Shown: in pieces, positions 1,586 through 51,840 of the stretch | Layout of the letters: each line of letters begins with the position of its first letter | Numbering within the stretch: the first letter of the stretch is position 1 | NCBI GenBank assembly: GCA_052327205.1 | Contig: CM126234.1 | Location: 29,636,001 to 29,700,000 of the forward strand | DNA: 64,000 nt | DNA from: Somniosus microcephalus | Lineage: Eukaryota | Direction: 5' to 3' | Made by a program: the position numbers and the translations under genes | The notes under the pieces: generated by a model | Database searches by the model: none | What the model was told of the DNA's origin: nothing | Seen by the model: only the letters and a program-made list of their open reading frames with translations

Positions 1586-2788
1586 TCAGTGAGGAATTGC
1601 TGTTATCCTCATACTCTGTGACGCAATTGGATAAGTAACCATTGGCGTGGTGGCATGGCTTATGGTGATTCCTGGCAGTGCTTGTGCAATTGATACTGCC
1701 ACTGGCGCAACAGAGACAGCCACCGGGGCCATGGAAACTGGAGGTGCCAGCCCCTGGGCAATGGTCTGGGCAAGTGCCGCAGGGAGAGAGGCAATCTCAG
1801 GATTAAGATGCTGAGCTGTTGGTGCAGCATTGGTCGGTGGCGCAGCGGACGCTCCAGCAGTTGCCACTAGGTCTTGCTGGGTGACTGGTCGTGGCTGAAG
1901 TGCTTGGCTGCTCAAAGTGGTGTGAGTCTGCGCGATACCGTGGTTGTAATTGGTGATTGTGCCCACAGTCGGTGCTGCCAGGGTTTGCTCTGTCGCTGCA
2001 GGAGTGGAGGTCAGCGTCACCACCTTCGTTTGGTTGCGGAAATGCGCATTTTGCTCCAAAAGTACCTCATTAGTCGCCATCAAATTTGAGATCTGCTTTT
2101 TGAGTTCCTCAACACGCTTTCGGAGCATCAGATTCTCCTCCTCTAGAAACCGATAGTCAACTGGACGTGCAGTTGGGATATTAAAATCATAAGTTTCAAA
2201 TCGCAAACCATCCACTCTTCTCCTCTTTAGAACGTGGTCGTAGTCAGTGTAGCGATCAGTGTCATAGAGGTCATCGAATGGGTCATATCGACGCACTACA
2301 GGAGAAAGCACTTGGTCTCGCGACAATCTCTCCAAAGTTCGGTTTTCATACTCGTATTCATCACGTTTTAAGTGCCGGAATTTACATTTAGATCCTCTTT
2401 GACAGTCGCCTTTTAGGTAGTCTCGGCAGATTGGAACCTCGCCTTTTTTAAAAGAGAGGTCAGAAGGCGAAAGGCCAAGACCCATGGCCACTGTAAGGCG
2501 CAAGCGGGGGGGAAGCTCTCCTGACTTTTTGTAATGTTCCTCATCCTCCTTTGTCCCATGAATAAACTTGCAGTTGATGCGAGTGCACTCCTTGTTCTGA
2601 TAGTCGTGACAAAAGACAAACTCATTCTTTTTTACGCCCAAGTCGGACACCTCATTAATGTCGGGGTGGTAGAACTTGCAGCGCTTGCCACGTTTGCAGA
2701 CATTGCGCAGGAAGTCTCGGCAAATATCGTCTGAGCTGTGGCCAGCCTCGTCATTACCACTGTTAAATAAATTATCTTTATCCGGCAT
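1586..2788 (-). CDS. ZC3H10: Zinc finger CCCH domain-containing protein 10 (canonical, 400 aa, single coding exon)
   Basis: The ORF reads MPDKDN...ICRDFLRNVCKRGKRCKFYHP...FCHDYQNKECTRINCKFIHG...ICRDYLKGDCQRGSKCKFRH...LEEENLMLRKRVEELKKQISNL...SQSMRITAIPH, closely matching vertebrate ZC3H10 from start to end. The ATG is at 2788; the ORF track's 2794 start is a GTG. Confidence 0.96.
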   Translation of the reverse strand: MPDKDNLFNSGNDEAGHSSDDICRDFLRNVCKRGKRCKFYHPDINEVSDLGVKKNEFVFCHDYQNKECTRINCKFIHGTKEDEEHYKKSGELPPRLRLTVAMGLGLSPSDLSFKKGEVPICRDYLKGDCQRGSKCKFRHLKRDEYEYENRTLERLSRDQVLSPVVRRYDPFDDLYDTDRYTDYDHVLKRRRVDGLRFETYDFNIPTARPVDYRFLEEENLMLRKRVEELKKQISNLMATNEVLLEQNAHFRNQTKVVTLTSTPAATEQTLAAPTVGTITNYNHGIAQTHTTLSSQALQPRPVTQQDLVATAGASAAPPTNAAPTAQHLNPEIASLPAALAQTIAQGLAPPVSMAPVAVSVAPVAVSIAQALPGITISHATTPMVTYPIASQSMRITAIPH

Positions 2789-6928: not shown

Positions 6929-8129
6929 TAAGGGCTCCTCCAATGCTCAAGGATTTTAATCCACTGAGTAGCAGAGCCATACAGAGCAGCAAAGACTCAG
7001 GTTTGGCCCCTAGTCTGTGCGGAGTTAGCTGTTCCCAGCCAGGGCAGCATCACGGATGCTACAATTAGCCTCAGTGACCCTGGGGAGGGGGTGAAATCAA
7101 CTACAGATTGCCAGACAGGGTTAGCATACCAATATGTTGGGCTATGGAATGCTAGAATGCAGGCTCCCTCCTGCAAATGCTCCAAATGTCAAGTTTCCTG
7201 ACCTCAGTCACATCATCAAGCAAAAGCCAGGGAAACTTGGAAAGCAAACCACGGTCACATACCTCTTAGCAAGCGGTTACATCATGGCATCGGCAGAGGC
7301 CTGGGTGCCTATAATACTGCTGTATACAACTATCTCATCTCAGAAACATTTGGATTGTGCACTTGCACTGCTGTCCTCCATACTTTTCCACTGGGTTCCT
7401 AGCAAACATCAAACCACCACTTCAGGGGCAAGGAACAGAGGACAGTGACGAGCACAGAAACTGCAACTTCCTGAAAAAATAACTTTTAAAGTTTTCCACC
7501 CTCAGCAGCTCGGGTTGAGTCCCTGTCTCTGATTATTATTCTGTTAAACTGTTGGAAATGTGGATATGAGGTACAAATAGGATCAGGTAGGCTGCAATGT
7601 TCCTGACGGTCAAATAGCCTACTGGCACTCACTGCTCAGGCTCACACATGCAGAATGTCCACTTGGGTGAGAGACTGGAGGGCTGTCAGCACCTGTGGAA
7701 TTGTACGTCCAGATGAGTCACTGTTTTCAGGAAAGGATTGGCATGAGGGAGGGAGAAAAAGTGGAGTGCTTCAAAAAAAAACTTATATGCATCATGGTTA
7801 TGAAATTTTTCAGTTCTTGCTTCAGTTAGTGCACGTCAAATAGCTCAGCTACTTCAAAGAAATTGTAACCTCTATGCATAAGTTCGTTTTCAAAATTGTA
7901 GTGTCTGAGAAACAAATATTTAGGGTCATTTTTACCCCACCACTTTTCTCTCTTTTCCCAATGATGATCCACTGTCAAATTCTGCAAAGCTGATTTGCTT
8001 CATTTGACAATGAATCTATCCAGCAAGACCTTGAAGTAGAGTTTCCCCAACATTTTTCTGAAAGCGTAATACAGTATTTTTAGAGTACTGTACTCTAATC
8101 TCAAATCATTTCATTTGAAAATGACAATA

Positions 8130-9470: not shown

Positions 9471-9846
9471 ACTAAAAAAATATAAAAATGTAAAGCATTT
9501 CGCCCGGGAACAAAAGTCTTATCAAGCAATACAACCTATTAATAATAGTAGATATTGAATCCTTAGTGTTTCAAATGCATGGGCGAGCCATAAATTCTCA
9601 AAACAATGCTTCTAAAGTCTGATTTAAGGAGCTGTTTACTGTAAATCACGCCATATACAGTAACAAGCTTGCCGAGGATTCGAAGGCTGTCATAGGATTT
9701 CTAGGCCTCAACTTTCTGCTCCATGAAACAACTGCACACACGAACACAGAATTAAACCTTCACTCGGAACATTTAAACTGTCGGGAGTAATCAACAGAGT
9801 GGGTCAGAGCGGTTAGAAAATAGACAGAAAACAGGGACATATTTAC

Positions 9847-9913
9847 ATACACGGTTCAGCTCACTCCTCCAAACACAACGAGCATCAAACAGGTCCTCCC
9901 AGACACGAGCGAC
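9847..9913 (-). other. ZC3H10: Putative non-coding first exon of canonical ZC3H10
   Basis: The minus strand reads gtcgctcgtgtctgggaggacctgtttgatgctcgttgtgtttggaggagtgagctgaaccgtgtat|gtaaat (alternative donor ccgt|gtatgt). It is an inverted homolog of the exon at 10130-10214. Confidence 0.65.
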
Positions 9914-10097
9914 TTAGAACCGCGTTTAATGTCCTTCTGTCAGATTAATAATTTGATGCACTATTTTCAAGTAAAACGTATTTAAACAGAATTCCCTCCA
10001 CCTCCCAAAGATCAATTTTGAAATTAAATGTCTGAAAATGCAGTAACGCGAAATGGTCCCCTCAACCGCACGGACGCTCAACGGGTTGCCGTTCATC
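9914..10097. promoter_or_regulatory. Putative bidirectional promoter between ZC3H10 and its paralog
   Basis: A short interval between two divergent homologous first exons, in a locally CpG-retaining region (about 9850-10560). Confidence 0.55.
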
Positions 10098-10214
10098 GAG
10101 CGATGGCTGGGGAGACAGCGGCTGCTGCGGTCGCTCTTGTCTCGGAGGACCTGCGTTCGACGTCTTTGGAGGACTGAGTGGAGAGAGAGGCAAAAAAAAG
10201 GCTGAACCGTGAAG
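10098..10214 (+). other. Putative non-coding first exon of the ZC3H10-like paralog
   Basis: A CpG-rich segment ending in the strong donor gaag|gtaagt and sharing gtcgctc..ggaggacctg..tttggagga..gctgaaccgtg with the minus-strand exon. The 5' boundary is approximate. Confidence 0.7.
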
Positions 10215-11294
10215 GTAAGTGTGCCCGTTTCTCTTGTGTTTTATAGATCGCTTTTATTCCCAGTATCGGTCGAGTGTCATTTTATTGTTTCTGCGGTTTA
10301 ACAAAAAAAATGAGCCAGGGTCGTCCCCCCGCCCCCCGACTTGTGCGCTGGCAGTTGTGTCAATTGGTGCAAATAAGTTGAGGCCTAGAAGCGCAATTGA
10401 AGCCTCGCTTGCAAGTTCGGCAACTTTCCGCCACCCAGAGCTGTCAACATCGCCATTTCGCGCGAGTTTCCCACTCAATGCCGGTAGGCCTAAGAACGAA
10501 AATGGTTGTGGGGGGGAATAGAGGAGTCCTGTCCGGTGTTCTGTGAAAGCTTATAAACCGGCTTGAAAGAATGGGATTGTGGATTCAGTGTGCAAAAAAA
10601 AAAGAGCATACATAATGTCTAAATGAAAATCGAAATAAGGAGCCGTTAAAGAGTACCCAAGCTGAAAGTATCGTTTTCAATTACGAGACTCCAATAAAAT
10701 TTTAACATTTTGATTTTAAATTTCCTGTTTAAAAATTATTTTAAGTCACTTCGTCCCGTTTGCTCCAGAAGCCGATTTTCTGTTGGCATAACTGGGTACA
10801 TCCCCAAGGGTGCTGCCCACTCCCTGGTGCTTCACCCAAGTAGCTATACACCATTCTTCATTTAGAGTCCAAGACGGGAGGGAATATCCGCAGGCTGTTG
10901 AACTTGGGGAAGGAGAAGACCATCAAAGCTGACCCTGATCCAGCATCCGTCAGTGATGGTGAAGGATTGAGAACCCTGGCTGATTCTTTTCCCCCTTGTC
11001 CTTCCCTAGCTCACTGACATGGATTCTACAAACAGTGTCGTTTGAATTAATTAAATCAGGTAATGACTGGGGATGGAAGCTGAACCTTCCTGGTCTATGT
11101 AGCGCATTTAGCCACTGAGTCATTGGAGTCCTAAAGTCTACCTGATTATGTGACTCAAAATAAATAAGTTTTAAACAGTTGATTTAAAAAAAAAAAAAAA
11201 AAAAAAAAATTCTTGGAAACTGGATGTAAAAATTTTTTTCCAAATGTGACTGTTACTTAGTTATACAATTATTATTTCCTTTTTTCCTCTTTAG

Positions 11295-11333
11295 GTCACT
11301 GCATCTTTTGCCATTCAAGAAAAAGAGTAAGCG
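11295..11333 (+). other. Candidate 39-nt 5'UTR micro-exon of the paralog
   Basis: tttcctttttcctctttag|gtcactg...gtaagcg|gtaagc: a polypyrimidine acceptor and tandem GTAAGC donors. Confidence 0.4.
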
Positions 11334-13495: not shown

Positions 13496-14826
13496 GAACT
13501 AAGGATAGGGCTATCAAAGTCAAAAAGTGGTAGCTGCTAGTTGGACTTGAGAGAGAGGAAGGAGTTATCTTTGAAAAATTTGAAGAAACAAGGTTTTATT
13601 GCCTCATTTAAAGGGCATGAAGGAGATAGAGATATGAGTCAAACGTTGTACTGCAAGAGGAATGTGGATCAAAGCATTAGAGCCCACAGCCTTTATTCCT
13701 AGGAATAGCACAAAGTTTGCAATTAAGCTGACAATATACGTTGACGATGTCATAGAAAATTGGGTTACATGTATTGTTTGTCTTTGCGTTTTAAATAATT
13801 GTTGAAAATTGCAACTTTAAAGTTATCTTAACTTGACGCTGCTTGTATTAAATGTCTATTTTCCATAAATTGGCTTTTATGAATAACATGGTATATTCAT
13901 GGATGTAATTCCATCAATAATATTTTTTTTTTACTGCAAACTACTTTATGAATATATATTTCAACATCATGTCATGATTGTGTGTGTAGTGTGCTAATTT
14001 GCACATTTAAGAATGTTACATAGCCTAAAATATACCTGTCAATTCTTAAATTGTTAAAGTAGATATCAAATATTTGTCTTGACATCTCTGGCATTAACAG
14101 TGTTTAAATATGGACAACAAAAATGTTGTGTTTTTTTTTAAACTAGAATTTAAGAGACCAGTTCTGAAATGATTAGCTGTAAGAATTTTCTGCAGTATGG
14201 TCAAGAAATTCCAAAGTAGTTAGCTACTTCTGTTGTGGAATTCCATGTGAAAAGTCAAAGGTTGGGTTTTCCATATTCATTTACACAGTATTTGTTACAA
14301 TACCTTTAATTGTGGGGAGACTGAACTCTAGGCTCTGGTGAGCTAAATCAGCACCATTTCCTTATCGTCTTTGTTCCTCAGCATGTTTCTTCAGTAGTTT
14401 GTTTCCACTGCTGATTGTAAGTCCCTGCATTTACAAGTTCCTAAAAAAAATCAATTGCAATAGAAATTCCTTTTTTTTCCCCCCCAAATATTTACTATCC
14501 GATGGCAATAATGATCAAGAAGGCATATATTATTTCTTTATTGTGCCAGTGTCTTTTTCACAACATTCCTATAAAGCATCAGTATCTATGATTTTAAAAG
14601 TAAAAAGGCAAACTAATGTTTCTTCTCCCTCGTTTTTTTTTAAATAAAACTTGATGTTCCACTACCACCCCCGAATATATATTTTCTATTGAATCAATGA
14701 TGTAGGTGCATCTACAATGTTTTGTGAGAAAGGGATTAACCACAGTTACTTTGTACCTGGCTTCTTTTTCTTTTGCAGTTGTTTATTGAGAGCCTTGGCT
14801 GAGTAGCGCAGAAATAATCTGGAAAC

Positions 14827-16473
14827 ATGTCCGAGAACGACACTGATAATTTAGTCAACAGCGGCAAATATGAGGCTGGCAAGAGCAAACGGAATGTTTG
14901 CCGAGACTTTCTGCGCAATGTCTGCACCCGTGGTAAGAATTGCAGGTACTTCCACCCGGACAATGTTGAGGCCTCGGACCTCGGCGACATAAGGAATGAT
15001 ACTGATAATTTAGTCAACATTGGCAATGATGAGGCTGGTAAAAGCAAACCGAACATTTGCCGAGACTTTCTGCGCAATCTCTGCAACCGTGGTAAGAATT
15101 GCAGGTATTTCCACCCAGATGATATTGAGGCTTCTGACCTCACTGACATAAGGAACGACATTGATAATGTAGTCAACACTGGCAATGACGAGGCTGGCAA
15201 AAGCAAACAGAACATTTGCCGAGACTTTCTGCGCAATCTCTGCAATCGTGGTAAGAATTGCAGGTATTTTCACCCAGATAATATTGATGTCTCCAACCAT
15301 GCTGACTTAAGTGATGACGCTGATAACTTAGTCAATAATAGCAAATATGAGGCTGGCAAGAGCAACCGGAATGTTTGCCGCGACTTTCTGCGCAATGTCT
15401 GCAACCGTGGTAAGAATTGCAGGTACTTTCACCCAGACAATGTTGAGGCCTACAGCGTAGGTGACATGCGGCATGAGTCAATCTTTTGTCAGTACTTTCA
15501 GAATAGTAAATGCACCCGTGAGAACTGCACGTTCATTCATGGGACAAAGGGGGAAGAGAGTTATTACAATAAAACGGGAAAGCTTCCCGCCCACTTGCAA
15601 CAGACGGTGGCTGTGACTTTTGGGCTCTCGCCCTCTAATCTGCCTCTGATTACAAAGGAGATCCCATTCTGCCGTGACTTTCTAAAGGGCAATTGTCGAA
15701 GAGGATCCAAATGTAAATTCCAGCACTTGAAACGTGATGACAATGATAAAAAAAGTGTCGAAAGAGCGTCACAAGATAGAGAACTTTCTCCTGCGACTTG
15801 TAGATATGACCGTTTGGATGACCTGTATGAAACCGAGAGATGTGATTATGACCAACATCCGAAAAAGAGAAGGATGGAGGGCCTGCGGTTTGAAGTATTT
15901 GATTACAGCACTCCTAATCTGCGCCCAGTTGAATTGAGTTTTTTGGAGGAGGAAAACCATATGCTCAGAACGCGCAATGAAGAACTCAAAAAGCAGGTGT
16001 CGAGCCTAATGCTGACCAACGAGGCCCTTCTTGAACAGAATGCAGAACTGCGCAAGCAGGTGAAGTTGGGGATCCTGACCACCGGGGCTGACCCAACACA
16101 ACATCCAACCATGCACACTGTTACCAACTATAACCACAGCATAGTGGAGACTCACACCACCCTGCGCAATCAGACACTGAGGTCACAGCCCATTTCTCAT
16201 CAAGAGTTGATCGCGCAAGCTAGAGCTCACAATGCGTTGTGTGCTGAAGCGACGTCCCAAAGTCCACCCCATCTTAGTGCTTCTATGTCTGCACCCTATG
16301 CCCAGGGGATGGCATCCCCAGTCTCGATGGCGCCGCTTGCCATCTCCGTTGCACCGGTGGCAGTTACACAATCACTGCCAGGAATTGCCATGAGTTATAC
16401 CACCACTCAAATGGTCAGTTATCCAAATGCATCACAGAGTATGAGGTTCCTCTGTCGTGCAGAGGAGAGTTGA
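14827..16473 (+). CDS. ZC3H10-like paralog, 548 aa, six CCCH fingers (4x finger 1 + finger 2 + finger 3), coiled coil and Ala/Pro-rich tail
   Basis: An uninterrupted ORF colinear with the canonical protein after the repeat (IFCQYFQNSKCTRENCTFIHG, FCRDFLKGNCRRGSKCKFQH, FLEEENHMLRTRNEELKKQVSSL, MVSYPNASQSMR). The acceptor ttttcttttgcag|t is at 14778, and the 5'UTR is homologous to the canonical gene's. Confidence 0.9.
   Translation: MSENDTDNLVNSGKYEAGKSKRNVCRDFLRNVCTRGKNCRYFHPDNVEASDLGDIRNDTDNLVNIGNDEAGKSKPNICRDFLRNLCNRGKNCRYFHPDDIEASDLTDIRNDIDNVVNTGNDEAGKSKQNICRDFLRNLCNRGKNCRYFHPDNIDVSNHADLSDDADNLVNNSKYEAGKSNRNVCRDFLRNVCNRGKNCRYFHPDNVEAYSVGDMRHESIFCQYFQNSKCTRENCTFIHGTKGEESYYNKTGKLPAHLQQTVAVTFGLSPSNLPLITKEIPFCRDFLKGNCRRGSKCKFQHLKRDDNDKKSVERASQDRELSPATCRYDRLDDLYETERCDYDQHPKKRRMEGLRFEVFDYSTPNLRPVELSFLEEENHMLRTRNEELKKQVSSLMLTNEALLEQNAELRKQVKLGILTTGADPTQHPTMHTVTNYNHSIVETHTTLRNQTLRSQPISHQELIAQARAHNALCAEATSQSPPHLSASMSAPYAQGMASPVSMAPLAISVAPVAVTQSLPGIAMSYTTTQMVSYPNASQSMRFLCRAEES
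14836..15471 (+). repeat. Coding tandem repeat, 4 x 159 bp (53 aa), each unit carrying one C-x7-C-x5-C-x3-H finger
   Basis: actgataatttagtcaaca occurs at 14842 and 15001 (period 159). Units start at 14836, 14995, 15154 and 15313, and CRDFLRNxCxRGKNCRYFHPD is conserved in all four. Confidence 0.95.
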
Positions 16474-33915: not shown

Positions 33916-34690
33916 CCGTTTAATCCATCGCTCCCGCTCAGGTCCGCACCGTGTCCTGGGCCTTCTCCGGTGCTCCGTTTAATCCGTCGCTCCCGCTCTG
34001 GTCCGCACCGTGTCCTGGGCCTTCTCCGGTGCTCCGTTTAATCCGTCGCTCCCGCTCTGGTCCGCACCGTGTCCTGGGCCTTCTCCGGTGCTCCGTTTAA
34101 TCCGTCGCTCCCGCTCGGGTCCGCACCATGTCTTGGGCCTTCTCCGGTGCTCCGTTTAATCCGTCGCTCCCGCTCAGGTCCATACCGTGTCCTGGGCCTT
34201 CTCCTGTGCTCAGTTTAATCCGTTGCTCCCGCTCTGGTCCACACCGTGTCCTGGGCCTTCTCCGGTGCTCAGTTTAATCCGTTGCTCCCGCTCTGGTCCG
34301 CACCGTGTCCTGGGCCTTCTCCTGTGCTCAGTTTAATCCGTCGCTCCCGCTCTGGTCCGCACCGTGTCCTGGGCCTTCTCCGGTGCTCCGTTTAATCCGT
34401 CGCTCCCGCTCAGGTCTGCACCGTGTCCTGGGCCTTCTCCTGTGCTCAGTTTAATCCGTTGCTCCCGCTCTGGTCCGCACCGTGTCCTGGGCCTTCTCCG
34501 GTGCTCCCGCTCTGGTCCGCACTGTGTCCTGGGCCTTCTCCGGTGCTCCCGCTCTGGTCCGCACCATGTCCTGGGCCTTCTCTGTTGCTCCCGCTCTGGT
34601 CCGCACCGTGTCCTGGGCCTTCTCCGGTGCTCCCGCTCCGGTCCGCACTGTGTCCTGGGCCTTCTCCGGTGCTCGGTTTAATCCGTCGCT
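33916..34690. repeat. GC/CpG-rich minisatellite: 10 x 59 bp followed by 4 x 42 bp
   Basis: The unit ccgtttaatccgtcgctcccgctctggtccgcaccgtgtcctgggccttctccggtgct repeats from 33916 to 34505. Units at 34506, 34548, 34590 and 34632 lack its first 17 bp. Confidence 0.95.
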
Positions 34691-35254: not shown

Positions 35255-36620
35255 AGTAGGCAAAATGCTAGAATCCATTATTAGGGACATGGTAACAGGC
35301 ACTTAGAAAATCACAATATGATTAGGGAGAGTCAACATGGTTTTATGAAAGGGAAATCGTGTTTGACAAATCTGTTAAGAGTTTTTTGAAGATGTAACCA
35401 GTAGGATGAATAAGGGGGTGTGGATGTGGTGTATTTGGATTTTCAAAAAGCATTCGATAAGGTGCCACACAAGAGGTTGTTACACAAAATTAGGGCTCAT
35501 GGGATTGGGAGTAATATATTAGCATGGATTGAGGATTGGTTAATGAACAGAAAACAGAGAGCAGGAATATACGGGACTTTTTCGGGTTGGCAGACTATAA
35601 CTAGCGGGGTACCGCAAGGATCAGTGCTTGGGCCTCAACTATTTACAATCTATATTAATGACTTAGATGAAGGGACTGAGTGTAACATATCCAAGTTTGC
35701 TGATGGTACAAAGTTAGGTGGGAAATTAAGCTGTGAGGAGGACGCCAAGAGGCTGGAGAGAGATATAGACAGGTTGACTGAGTGGGCAAGAACATGGCAA
35801 ATGGAATACAATGTGGGGAAGTGTGAAGTTATCCACATTGGTAGGAAAAATAAAAAAGCAGAATATTTTTTAAATGGTGAGAGATTGGGAAATGTTGGTG
35901 TTCAGAGGGACCTGGGTGTCCTTGTACATGAATCACAAAAAGTTAACAAGCAGGTACAGCAAGCAATTAGGAAAGCAAATGGTATGTTAGCTTTTGTTAT
36001 AAAGGGATTAAAGTGTAAGAGTAAAGAAGTCTTACTACAATTATATGGGACATTAGTGAGGCCACACCTGGAGCACTGTGTACAGTTCTGGTCTCCTTAC
36101 CTAAGGAAAGACATACTTGCCTTGGAGGGAGTGTAGCAAAGATTCACCAGACTGGTTCCTAGGATGAGGGGATTGCCCTATGAGGAGAGATTGAGTAGAC
36201 TAGGCCTATATTCCCTAGAGTTTAGAAAAATGAGAGGTGATCTAATTGAAACATATAAAATTCTTAAGGGGCTTGACAGGGTTAATGCTTGGAAAATGTT
36301 TTCCCCGGCTGGGGAATCTAAAACACGGGGTCACAGTCTCGCAATAAGGGGTAGGCCTTTTAGGACTGAGATGAGGAGGAATTTCTTCACTCAGAAGGTT
36401 GTGAATCTTTGGAGTTTTCTATCCCAGAGAGGTGTAGATGCTCAGTCATTGAATATATTCAAGACAGAGGTCGATTAATTTTTTGGGAACAAAGGGAATT
36501 AAGGGATATGGGGATAGTGCGGGAAGGTGGAGTTGAGGTAGAAGATCAGCCATGATCTTGTTGAATGGCAGAACAGGCTCGAATGGGCAAATGGCCTACT
36601 CCTGCTCCTATTTCTTATGA
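35255..36620 (+). mobile_element. CR1/HER1-like LINE, 5'-truncated, with stops
   Basis: DVVYLDFQKAFDKVPH, SGVPQGSVLGP, SKFADGTKLG, and a 3' tail ctcctgctcctatttcttatg. Confidence 0.93.
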
Positions 36621-37134: not shown

Positions 37135-39921
37135 TTGGGATTACGGAAACGTGGCTCAAGGAAGGCCAGGACTGGGAATTCAACATTCAGGAAAGATAGG
37201 CAAAAAGGAAAGGGAGGTGGGGTAGCATTACTGGTTAAAGAAGGGATTAACACAATTGTAATGAAGGATATTAGCTCTGATGAGGTGGAATCTGTATGGG
37301 TAGAATTGAGAAATACTAAGGGGAAAAAAACGTTAGTGGGAGTGGTATATAGACCTCCAAACAGTAAGGCGGAGGTTGGGGATGGCATTAAAAGAGAAAT
37401 TAAAGCGTGCAATAAGGGCACAGCAGTCATCATGGGTGACTTTAATCTACATATAGATTGGGCCAACCAAATGAGTAACAATACTGTGGAGGAGGAATTC
37501 CTGGAGTGTTTACGGGATGGTTTCCTGGACCAATATGTCGAGGAACCAACCAGAGATCAGGCCATCTTAGACTGGGTATTATGTAACGAGAAAGGATTAA
37601 TTAGCAATCTTGTTGTAAGAGGCCCCTTGGGTCGGAGCAATCATAATATGATCGAATTCTTCATTAAAATGGAGAATGAAGTAGTTGACTCGGAGACTAG
37701 GGTCCTCAATTTAAATAAAGGAAACTACGATGGTCTGAGGAGCGAGTTGGGTAGGATTGATTGGGGAATGGCACTCAAAGGGTTGACGGTGGATAGGCAA
37801 TGGCAAACATTCAAAGACCGAATGGATGAACTACAGAATTTGTTCATCCCAGTTTGGCATAAAAATAAAACAAAAAAGGTGACCCAACCGTGGCTAACAA
37901 GGGAAATTAGGGATAGCATATGGTCCAAGGAGAGGGCATATAAATTGGCCAGAAAAAGCAATAATCCTGAGGATTGGGAGCAGTTTAGGATTCAACAAAG
38001 GAGGACAAAGGGATTAATTAAGAAAGGGAAAATAGAATATGAGAGTAACCTAGCAGGAAACATAAAAACTGACTGTAAAAGCTTTTATAGATATGTGAAG
38101 GGAAAAAGATTGGTGAAGTCAAGCGTAGGTCCCTTGCAGTCAGAATCGGGGGAATTTATAATGGGGAACAAAGAAATGGCAGACCAACTAAATACATATT
38201 TTGGTTCTGTCTTCACAAAGGAGGACACAAATAACCTCCCAGAGATGCCGGGGAACATAGGGTCTGATGAAAGGGTGGAACTGAAAGAAATCAGTATTTG
38301 TAGGGAAATGGTGTTAGGAAAATTGATGGGACTGAAGGCCGATAAATCCCCAGGGCCTGATAATCTACATCCCAGGGTACTTAAGGAAGTGGCCCTAGAA
38401 ATAGTAGATGCATTGCTGGTCATCTTCCAGAACTCGATAGACTCTGGAACGGTACCCATGGATTGGCAGGTAGCTAATGTTACCCCACTATTCAAAAAAG
38501 GTGGGAGAGAAAAGGCGGGGAATTATAGACCAGTAAGCTTGACATCGGTAGTGGGGAAAATGCTAGAGTCCATTATAAAAGATGTAATAGCAGAGCACTT
38601 GGAAAGCAGTGACTGGATCGGACAAAGTCAACATGGATTTACAAAAGGTAAATCATGCTTGACTAATCTACTGGAATTTTTTGAGGATGTAACTGGTAAA
38701 ATAGATAAGGGAGAACCAGTGGATGTGGTGTATTTGGACTTTCAGAAGGCTTTCGATAAGGTCCCGCATAAGAGATTGGTGTGCAAAATTAAGGCACATG
38801 GGATTGGGGGCAAGGTATTGACTTGGATAGAGAACTGGTTGGCGGACAGAAAGCAAAGAGTTGGAATAAACGGGTTGTTTTCCGAGTGGCAGGCAGTGAC
38901 TAGTGGGGTACCGCAAGGATCGGTCCTAGGACCCCAGCTGTTCACAATATATATTAATGATCTGGATGAGGGAATTGGATGTAATATCTCCAAATTTGCA
39001 GACGACACAAAGCTGGGGGGGAGGGTATGCTGTGAGGAGGATGTCGTGAAACTCCAGCACGATTTGGACAGGTTGGGTGATTGGGCAGAAACATGGCAAA
39101 TGCACTATAATGTGGATAAATGTGAGGTTATCCACTTTGGTGGCAAAAACAGGAAGGCAGATTATTATTTGAATGGTAATAGATTGGGAGAAGGGGAAGT
39201 GCAAAGAGACCTGGGTGTTCTTGTGCACCAGTCGCTGAAGGTAAGCATGCAGGTGCAGCAGGCGGTTAAGAAGGCAAATGGTATGTTGGCCTTCGTAGCA
39301 AGAGGGTTCGAGTACAAGAACAAGGATGTCTTGCTGCAGTTGTACAGGGCCTTGGTGAGACCGCACCTTGAGTATTGTGTGCAGTTTTGGTCGCCTTACC
39401 TGAGGAAGGACGTTCTTGCCATGGAAGGGGTGCAGCGAAGATTCACCAGGCTGATACCTGGGATGGCAGGAATGACGTATGAGGAGAGATTGTGTCGATT
39501 GGGCTTATACTCACTGGAGTTTAGAAGATTGAGAGGGGATCTCATTGAAACCTATAAAATTCTGTCAGGCCTGGACAGACTAGATGCAGGAAGGATGTTT
39601 CTGATGGCCGGGGAGTCCAGAACCAGGGGTCATAGTCTAAGGATAAGGGGTAAGCCATTTAGGACTGAAATGAGGAGGAATTTCTTCACCCAGAGAGTGG
39701 TGAACCTGTGGAATTCTCTGCCACAGAGGGCGGTGGAGGCCAGTTCATTAAGTATATTCAAGAAAGAGTTGGATATATTTCTTAAGGCTAAAGGGATCAA
39801 GGGATATGGGGAGAAAGCAGGGACAGGGTACTGAATTTGGATGATCAGCCATGATCTCATTGAATGGCGGAGCAGGCTCGAAGGGCCAACTCCTGCTCCT
39901 ATCTTCTATGTATCTATGTAA
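37135..39921 (+). mobile_element. Young CR1/HER1-like LINE; 5'-truncated ORF2 (partial endonuclease plus complete RT), ORF 37123-39834
   Basis: A 903-aa open frame with GVVYRPP, MGDFN, LDWVL, the RT motifs QHGF, LDFQKAFD, GVPQGSVLGP and FADD, and a (tctatg)-type 3' tail. Confidence 0.96.
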
Positions 39922-40955: not shown

Positions 40956-41337
40956 TTTGGCCAGAGATGGTATGTGGCCCCAAGACACTTTAGGGATTGG
41001 ATTTAAATAGCGAAAAGTAGTAAACATTCAAAATACTGAATCAAATGTTGATTTTTAGCAGACCTAAGTGTAGTGATGTCAACATGTTAAGAATGACCTT
41101 TATGATCAACAAGAGTGACTCAGATTGTTAAAAGGAGCCAATTCTAATTGCAAACCATTTATACGGAGTGCTGTGTTTTGTAAAGTGACGTCTGTCAAAA
41201 TGTCACATTTAAAATCAAAATTAGGGATTGCCATTTGGCAAATCATGTTTGGTGTTTACCAGCAACCGACTGCGCCTTTTAACATTGTCTGCTGCGGTGG
41301 AAGGCGCTTGTGTTGCGTTGCGCCTCTTTAGCCTGGA

Positions 41338-41473
41338 GTTGCTCTTGGCTGGGAGGACCTGGTTGGATGCTCTTTGTCGTGAAGTTACCCTTGACTGGGA
41401 GGACCTGCGTTGAGCCTCTTTGTGTCGGAGCTGTGAGGGAAGGAGCGGAGTCGAGCGGTGCTGTGCTGTATAG
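41338..41473 (+). other. Homolog of the ZC3H10 first exon (third copy), within a CpG-retaining region
   Basis: Two copies of the exon-1 motif (gctcttggctgggaggacctggttggatgctc and cttgactgggaggacctgcgttgag), then the donor tatag|gtaaac followed by tccctggttt as in the canonical copy. Confidence 0.6.
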
Positions 41474-51203: not shown

Positions 51204-51840
51204 TTCCTTGTTGAGCATCTTGACTGAACAGCACTGAATTAATCTATAAAAATGTCAGGTACAGATCATTTAGTCAACAGTGGCAACAGCAAGGCTGCCA
51301 ATAGCACTGATGACATTTGCTGAGACGTCCTGCGCAACTTCTGCATCCGCGGCAAGCGCTGCAAGTTCTGCCACCCAAACGCTAATGAGTTTTCTGAACT
51401 TGGCTTTTTGTGTTATGACCTTCTTAATAAAGGCTGGATTCCAGTCTGCCACGACTGTCAGAAGGGTGGATGTCAGAGGCCCAGGTGTAAATTGTTGCAT
51501 GTAGAATGTGATGGGTATAATTATGAAAATCACCAGTAGGGAAAGCATGTATCATTGCCAAGTACTGTTTCCCTTGATGGGTAGATAAGATCCCCATCAA
51601 GGAGATACCCATCTGAAGAGAAGAATGACTCTCACTGAGATAGGAATATGGCGTCCCAAGTTCACATCCAGTTGATTCCTAATACCTTCAAGAGACCCTT
51701 ATGCTGCGAAAGCACAATGGGGAACTCCATACAGGTGGCAAATCTGGCGCAGAATGCACATCTCTGCAAACAAATGGCAGTGGGAATGCTGGCCTCCGCA
51801 CTCTTGGAAACAGCTGGGATGCACTTCTCTCAGTAACATC
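51204..51840 (+). pseudogene. ZC3H10-like pseudogene (third copy)
   Basis: The acceptor ttttcttttgcag is at 51203 and the ATG at 51252: MSGTDHLVNSGNSKAANSTDDIC*DVLRNFCIRGKRCKFCHP...IPVCHDCQKGGCQRPRCKLLH. A frameshifted coiled coil follows (MLRKHNGEL / QVANL / QNAHLCKQ). The TGA at 51321 replaces Arg. Confidence 0.85.

Follow-up and report, generated by a model that had tools for sequence, protein, structure and literature searches.

Gene pair, promoter and transcription

Two open reading frames of the ZC3H10 type, of 400 and 548 amino acids, were found in the window, i.e., the whole stretch of 64,000 nucleotides from Somniosus microcephalus that was analysed, and an exact-match look-up of both proteins in the protein collection found neither. 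The shorter frame is the canonical three-finger ZC3H10 (1586..2788, minus strand), with non-coding exons near 7268-7398 and ending at 9851. The longer frame encodes a six-finger paralogue (14827..16473, plus strand) in one exon, exon 3, which starts at 14779 and is preceded on the same strand by two non-coding exons: exon 1 (10130..10214, donor GT at 10215), placed by the joint 10212->11293 and by a motif described below and mapped to its 3' side, and exon 2 (11295..11333), defined by splice joints.

As the earlier note had claimed, the 548-aa frame is intact and strongly diverged from the adjoining canonical gene: the two proteins are 55% identical, and a CCCH pattern scan allowing x4 or x5 recovered six fingers with every Cys and His ligand, as against three in the canonical protein. 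The ZC3H10-family spacings x7-x5-x3, x7-x4-x3 and x7-x5-x3 are all found, finger 1 being present four times. A tandem array at the start of the frame (period 159, 3.9 copies, 14835-15451) resolves into four 159-bp (53-aa) units at 14833-14991, 14992-15150, 15151-15309 and 15310-15468 (span 14833..15468, plus strand), each consisting of a leader, finger 1 and an acidic linker. These units had been described as exact repeats; they are equal in length but not in sequence, with 125-139 of 159 bases (79-87%) and 33-42 of 53 residues identical in pairwise comparison. The finger-1 copies (C-x7-C-x5-C-x3-H, 57 bp each) start at 14899, 15058, 15217 and 15376 (14899..15432) and are followed, likewise on the plus strand, by finger 2 (C-x7-C-x4-C-x3-H, aa 221-238, 15487..15540), whose R231 is the equivalent of mammalian R89, by S268 in a GLSP motif (15628..15630), the equivalent of the p38 site S126, and by finger 3 (aa 282-300, 15670..15726). 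A basic stretch PKKRR (aa 345-349, 15859..15873) lies at the position of the ZC3H10 nuclear localisation signal (NLS), and a leucine-zipper or coiled-coil helix (aa 367-418, 15925..16080) follows it; the equivalents of R89, S126, the NLS and the bZIP-like zipper are all retained. With vertebrate ZC3H10 the paralogue shares the finger 1-2-3 spacing, the GLSP site, the NLS, the zipper, a low-complexity tail and a single coding exon after non-coding exons, whereas it differs in its four finger-1 units, in R->N and K->N/T/S replacements, in a changed finger 2 and in a new C-terminal end.

The canonical and six-finger genes are oriented away from each other, and their first donors lie 364 bp apart within a CpG-rich head-to-head promoter region (9751..10500) with a CpG observed/expected ratio of about 1. 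Inverted homologous arms (9819-9860/10201-10242 and 9684-9714/10375-10405) are centred about 10,030, and a homologous acceptor and leader precede the ATG in both genes. We read the pair as an inverted whole-gene duplication around one candidate bidirectional promoter. Retroposition was ruled out as an origin because introns and promoter are duplicated too. Best matches, tree and gene structure (common acceptor and exon 1) show that the paralogue descends from ZC3H10, and its neighbour at 1586-2788, not the paralogue itself, is the one-to-one orthologue.

None of the runs listed as containing the sequence was recorded as RNA. Reads were mapped from four runs, of which the two RNA runs (X23 and X24) had been chosen by species label. 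For the paralogue, X24 gave depths of 2.3, 4.4 and 7.4 over the three coding bins (the last being the maximum, i.e., depth was low throughout), all in the sense-RNA direction, and for the canonical gene depths of 1.1-1.5 in the opposite direction; in X23, depths were 0-1.1 for the paralogue and 0-1.5 for the canonical gene. Since human-DNA-like reads had been removed, expression levels of the two genes cannot be ranked from these values. The joint 10212->11293 (GT..AG) was seen in three reads from one start in X24 and in one contig of run X1, a run from a relative whose RNA status was guessed; X1 also contained the joint 11321->14778 between exons 2 and 3 of the paralogue as well as the joints 9850->7397 and 7268->2837 of the canonical gene. 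The six-finger paralogue is hence transcribed and spliced.

Distribution and history of the array

The protein search found 422 proteins, the best 120 of which were looked at; the named proteins among these 120 carried ZC3H10/ZC3HA or generic and hypothetical names. In the main protein cluster, 15 of 19 members were looked at. The orthologue set analysed comprised 18 proteins, 17 from named species (10 sharks and 7 rays) plus one Logan protein; two near-copies of the latter were set aside, as were two fragments of 180 and 335 aa from epaulette shark. Six fingers are present in 17 of the 18 proteins (16 of the 17 named species), the sawfish having five, with three finger-1 units that match positions 1, 3 and 4. 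The annotation of the epaulette shark gene as two pieces (180 + 335 aa) suggests a break or mis-annotation. No protein with more than three fingers was found outside the orthologue set among 154 database proteins, and the six-finger form was found neither among the bony-vertebrate matches listed nor in elephant shark, where the canonical gene is accompanied by two two-finger copies on its contig and by an unlinked copy; absence from holocephalans is provisional, elephant shark being a single annotated genome. The paralogue is common to sharks and rays rather than narrowly lineage-specific. In the 10 species with both genes, identity to the Somniosus protein is 85-93% for the paralogue and 94-99% for the canonical gene. 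Three six-finger orthologues (P0005, P0136 and P0137, on 7, 12 and 2 contigs, respectively) are 512 aa long with a different, shorter C-terminus, which suggests that one lineage has a genuine frameshift late in the gene.

Mis-assembly is common in tandem arrays, but an assembly artefact or pseudogene is next to impossible here given that 17 of the 18 orthologues agree in the number and order of units, given the spliced transcripts, and contigs of run X20 that match 14778-14971, 15125-15491, 15473-15870 and 15906-16404 with 0 differences, in agreement with the earlier note.

In the 17 four-unit proteins, every unit (68/68) was on average nearest to the unit at the same position in other species, identity being 0.89 at the same position across species versus 0.71 within species. 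The unit tree, built on few columns, was mostly unresolved, with unit 4 as a starred clade. Because the units group by position and not by species, we read the four-unit array as frozen in order before the shark-ray split; concerted evolution of the units is ruled out on the same grounds. Among the four units of the Somniosus gene, pN/pS was 0.096 in the finger core and 0.50 in the linkers, and dN/dS of the paralogue versus the canonical gene was 0.32 over 384 codons (Nei-Gojobori; pairs not independent). Finger cores are under purifying selection. In a phylogeny of 37 rows over the region common to the family, with no outgroup beyond ZC3H10, the paralogue has a stem of 0.56 substitutions per site and crown branches mostly under 0.1, compared to a stem of 0.027 for elasmobranch canonical genes; such a burst of change followed by stasis fits a new function. 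Its sister in the tree is the tail-less copy described below (support 95/87), a relation of which we are unsure because of long branches.

These data bear on the possibility that the gene is a dosage back-up of ZC3H10 and that its additional units arose by chance and were tolerated. The known functional elements are all retained, the sawfish copes with three units, and a break may exist in the epaulette shark; however, strong constraint on all four finger cores, a unit order frozen across sharks and rays, and a long stem followed by stasis make this explanation improbable.

The earlier note regarded ZC3H10 as single-copy, which fails in cartilaginous fishes: a genome search gave 11 matches from 16 candidates, amounting to five intact copies and one broken copy in Somniosus microcephalus. 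Besides the gene pair, these are a two-finger copy of 223 aa (C33:29,708,009; L007:1501-2169) and a tail-less three-finger copy of 278 aa (C33:29,733,581; L002:1492-2325), both on C33, the contig of the window, an unlinked two-finger copy of 282 aa (C32:20,937,377; L008:1495-2340), and a broken copy of two-finger type within the window (51252..51575, plus strand) with in-frame stops, one of which replaces part of finger 1. The two additional C33 copies are conserved, with protein clusters of 16 and 13 members at 89-97% identity, and share contigs (matched by size) with the six-finger gene in several species. The tail-less copy is 89-94% identical across sharks and rays and has finger-1 changes of its own; the two-finger C33 copy, whose identity is 96-97% among elasmobranchs and 77% with elephant shark, is as conserved as the canonical gene, and a loose end in run X1 matches it. 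The four intact copies on C33 would accordingly constitute a conserved cluster. The unlinked C32 copy has an elephant shark orthologue and is possibly a genome-duplication copy, unseen among the bony-vertebrate matches listed. Across chondrichthyans, the other ZC3H10-like copies comprise a two-finger form of ~223-229 aa, a three-finger form of ~279 aa without the tail and an unlinked two-finger form of ~300 aa, which share with the paralogue an origin by whole-gene duplication, the common splice acceptor and the zipper. They have lost a finger or the tail, whereas only the six-finger copy has gained fingers.

The exon-1 motif was found in front of every copy except the tail-less one, at window positions 9860-9913, 10130-10178 and 41337-41422, at the window-equivalent positions 69832-70699 on C33 beyond the window, and at C32:20,936,798-20,936,887 (76-85% identity, some E-values weak), and may be an old 5' UTR or promoter element. 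The stretches belonging to the broken copy (41338-41422) and to the intact two-finger copy (window-equivalent 69833-69917) gave identical alignments, which suggests recent duplication or conversion. About 110 kb past the cluster lies an SMP-domain gene (C33:29.85-29.87 Mb), which presumably fits a ZC3H10-ESYT1 neighbourhood; tblastn with PA2G4- and ESYT1-containing proteins over 244 kb around the locus found no such exons.

Finger residues, predicted dimerisation and proposed function

The ligand of mammalian ZC3H10 differs between papers, namely RNA, double-stranded DNA via the zipper, or single-stranded DNA via the fingers. Fingers 1 and 2 are reported to bind RNA and the zipper DNA, and mutating finger 1 or 2 blocks pri-miRNA binding (PMC6911170, citing Treiber 2017); the protein selects the motif AGUGCAG (PMC11612968), and fingers, NLS, coiled coil and R89 are required for TTTC single-stranded DNA binding and interferon-gene repression (PMC13375009). 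For each of the family ligands (GCAG-type RNA, TTTC single-stranded DNA and TYCCNG DNA), the implicated residues, i.e., R89, fingers 1-2 and the zipper, are retained in the paralogue.

In all four units, the finger-1 core has the sequence C[T/N]RGKNCRY, as had been noted together with the proposal of altered specificity. Only part of this change sets the units apart: K->R and F->Y are nothing unusual in ZC3H10 (among 207 other finger-1 sequences, 143 have R and 26 have Y), K->N also occurs in the two-finger cluster copies, and R->N alone is unit-specific (82/82 units versus 0/207 others). The closest solved relatives of the fingers are those of MBNL1 (E 1.2e-7; 14 sequences at E<0.01), finger 1d-2 aligning with MBNL ZnF3/4. 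The GC-step pocket of MBNL1 comprises R186, R190, R195, R201 and F202 (PMC9780971), and the equivalents of the four arginines are R in 82, 82, 82 and 81 of 82 units, respectively, that of the aromatic residue being Y or F in 82 of 82. The two real finger-1 changes put Asn at the places of MBNL1 N194 and N198, and MBNL1 finger 3 also has Asn there. The argument for altered specificity in its stated form is hence weak.

Finger charge is +4 in the paralogue units versus +6 in the canonical protein, the linkers are acidic, and the net charge of whole units, 0 to -2, is neutral to acidic. AlphaFold2 with 84 rows predicted six folded fingers without a fixed arrangement (mean pLDDT 55.5, pTM 0.24) and linkers with pLDDT<50, which is an absence of prediction and no proof of flexibility; with 33 rows, mean pLDDT was 39 and residues 1-217 were uninformative. 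The zipper is nearly invariant across orthologues, and for the pair of paralogue and canonical ZC3H10 an in-register coiled coil was predicted with a score of 0.62, as compared to 0.00 for the best of three controls, the runs agreeing in at least 77% of contacts with a partner pLDDT of at least 69. The mark used was reached by 51 of 78 solved versus 2 of 108 mismatched microbial pairs and by 39 of 65 solved versus 2 of 126 unrelated eukaryotic pairs; the score may do no more than reflect a general resemblance to known coiled-coil structures, and it does not discriminate between family members as partners. A zipper heterodimer with canonical ZC3H10 is a prediction, close relatives lying outside the tested pair sets.

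We propose, with a probability of roughly 60%, that the protein is a nuclear, dimerising multivalent reader of repeated or clustered GC-containing motifs in single-stranded RNA or DNA, which acts by avidity. Each finger would retain a pocket of the MBNL/ZC3H10 type with less positive charge on a flexible acidic linker, and for this reason single sites would be bound weakly and arrays of sites strongly. Zipper pairing with canonical ZC3H10 would bring 9-12 fingers into one complex, and the dimer might retarget or tune ZC3H10 activity in cells making both. Multivalent repeat reading as in MBNL1/2, with which the closest solved structures and the GC-step pocket residues are shared, serves as a working analogy. 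MBNL proteins have two packed finger pairs and no known zipper, whereas the paralogue has three unpaired finger copies on 34-aa linkers and a zipper, and the likeness is at the level of the finger only. Against multivalent reading stands the fact that three of the four finger-1 copies have no finger-2 partner: since finger 1 needs finger 2 in mammals, these copies may not bind nucleic acid alone. Of the possibly neofunctionalised multivalent reader put forward in the earlier note, the intact, expressed and selected gene with its burst and stasis is borne out.

An alternative is that the repeated fingers have gained a new sequence or ligand preference and recognise a set of targets that has no relation to that of ZC3H10. 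All units carry the R->N change, position 18 is mostly F instead of R or K, finger 2 has changed too and is invariant in all 19 sequences, and the stem branch is long; the pocket-equivalent residues are nevertheless the same and the Asn residues gained have counterparts in MBNL1 finger 3, and we regard this alternative as unlikely. Higher valency is better supported than new specificity because the finger changes spare the residues that match the MBNL1 GC pocket. Slightly less probable still is that the array serves as a scaffold for binding proteins or polymers, the gene being mainly a zipper partner that damps or redirects canonical ZC3H10 as a decoy. The neutral to acidic units, the nearly invariant zipper with its predicted pairing, the common promoter that ensures co-expression with canonical ZC3H10, and the two other cluster copies that lack a finger or the tail and still have the zipper are in line with a decoy. 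By contrast, surface Arg and aromatic residues of the nucleic-acid pocket are invariant in every unit and the R89 equivalent is retained.

RefSeq and UniRef name the six-finger proteins 'ZC3H10-like' automatically. No description of the six-finger form or of the cluster was found in the literature, of which subscription papers and preprint supplements were poorly covered, and ZC3H10 is not named in the examined supplements of three shark genome papers. Screens restricted to one-to-one orthologues would miss multi-copy genes of this kind. With one finger repeated four times and frozen before the shark-ray split, beside an unchanged parent and copies with fewer fingers that have the zipper in common, the locus offers a natural experiment on finger number, in which one can test directly which ligand ZC3H10 finger 1 recognises and whether target choice shifts with valency rather than with sequence.

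Chromosomal setting and other features of the window

C33 (40.4 Mb) carries a dispersed Hox cluster at 38.05-38.37 Mb, and three compact clusters lie on other contigs. This fourth cluster (C33:38,052,649-38,372,541) spans 320 kb with eight homeoboxes, two of them on the opposite strand, and is HoxC by elimination. HoxC marks the X end or PAR in several sharks, X sizes are 16.4-28.8 Mb and up to 73.0 Mb, and chr12 of the electric ray, of 103,180,129 bp, is X-homologous (bioRxiv 10.1101/2025.02.26.637739); ZC3H10 does not occur in the text of that preprint. The contigs bearing the six-finger orthologue measure 103,180,129 bp in electric ray and 16.41, 16.39, 19.6, 28.3 and 73.08 Mb in other species; in three other sharks the orthologue is on contigs of 36-46 Mb, above the published X range. 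HoxC on the same contig and the sizes of the orthologue contigs make X linkage of the six-finger gene likely, and with 8.4 Mb between it and HoxC the gene probably lies outside the PAR.

The elasmobranch X is about 300 Mya old, and dosage-dependent sex determination has been argued, with the trigger unidentified (PMC12318234). A lineage-specific regulator on an X-homologous chromosome is of interest in a group with X dosage as its presumed sex trigger. It is conceivable, as a long shot, that this shark-and-ray gene on a differentiated X, fixed about when the X arose, is a dose-sensitive multivalent regulator contributing to the X-dosage sex trigger, and that the 2-, 3- and 6-finger copies form a combinatorial zipper code.

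Elsewhere in the window, long reverse-transcriptase-like open frames at 37261-39834 and 35543-36136 were found, which we take to be LINE (CR1-type) reverse transcriptase, and a GC-rich minisatellite at 33916-34674 consists of a 59-bp unit repeated 10 times that runs into a 42-bp unit repeated five times.
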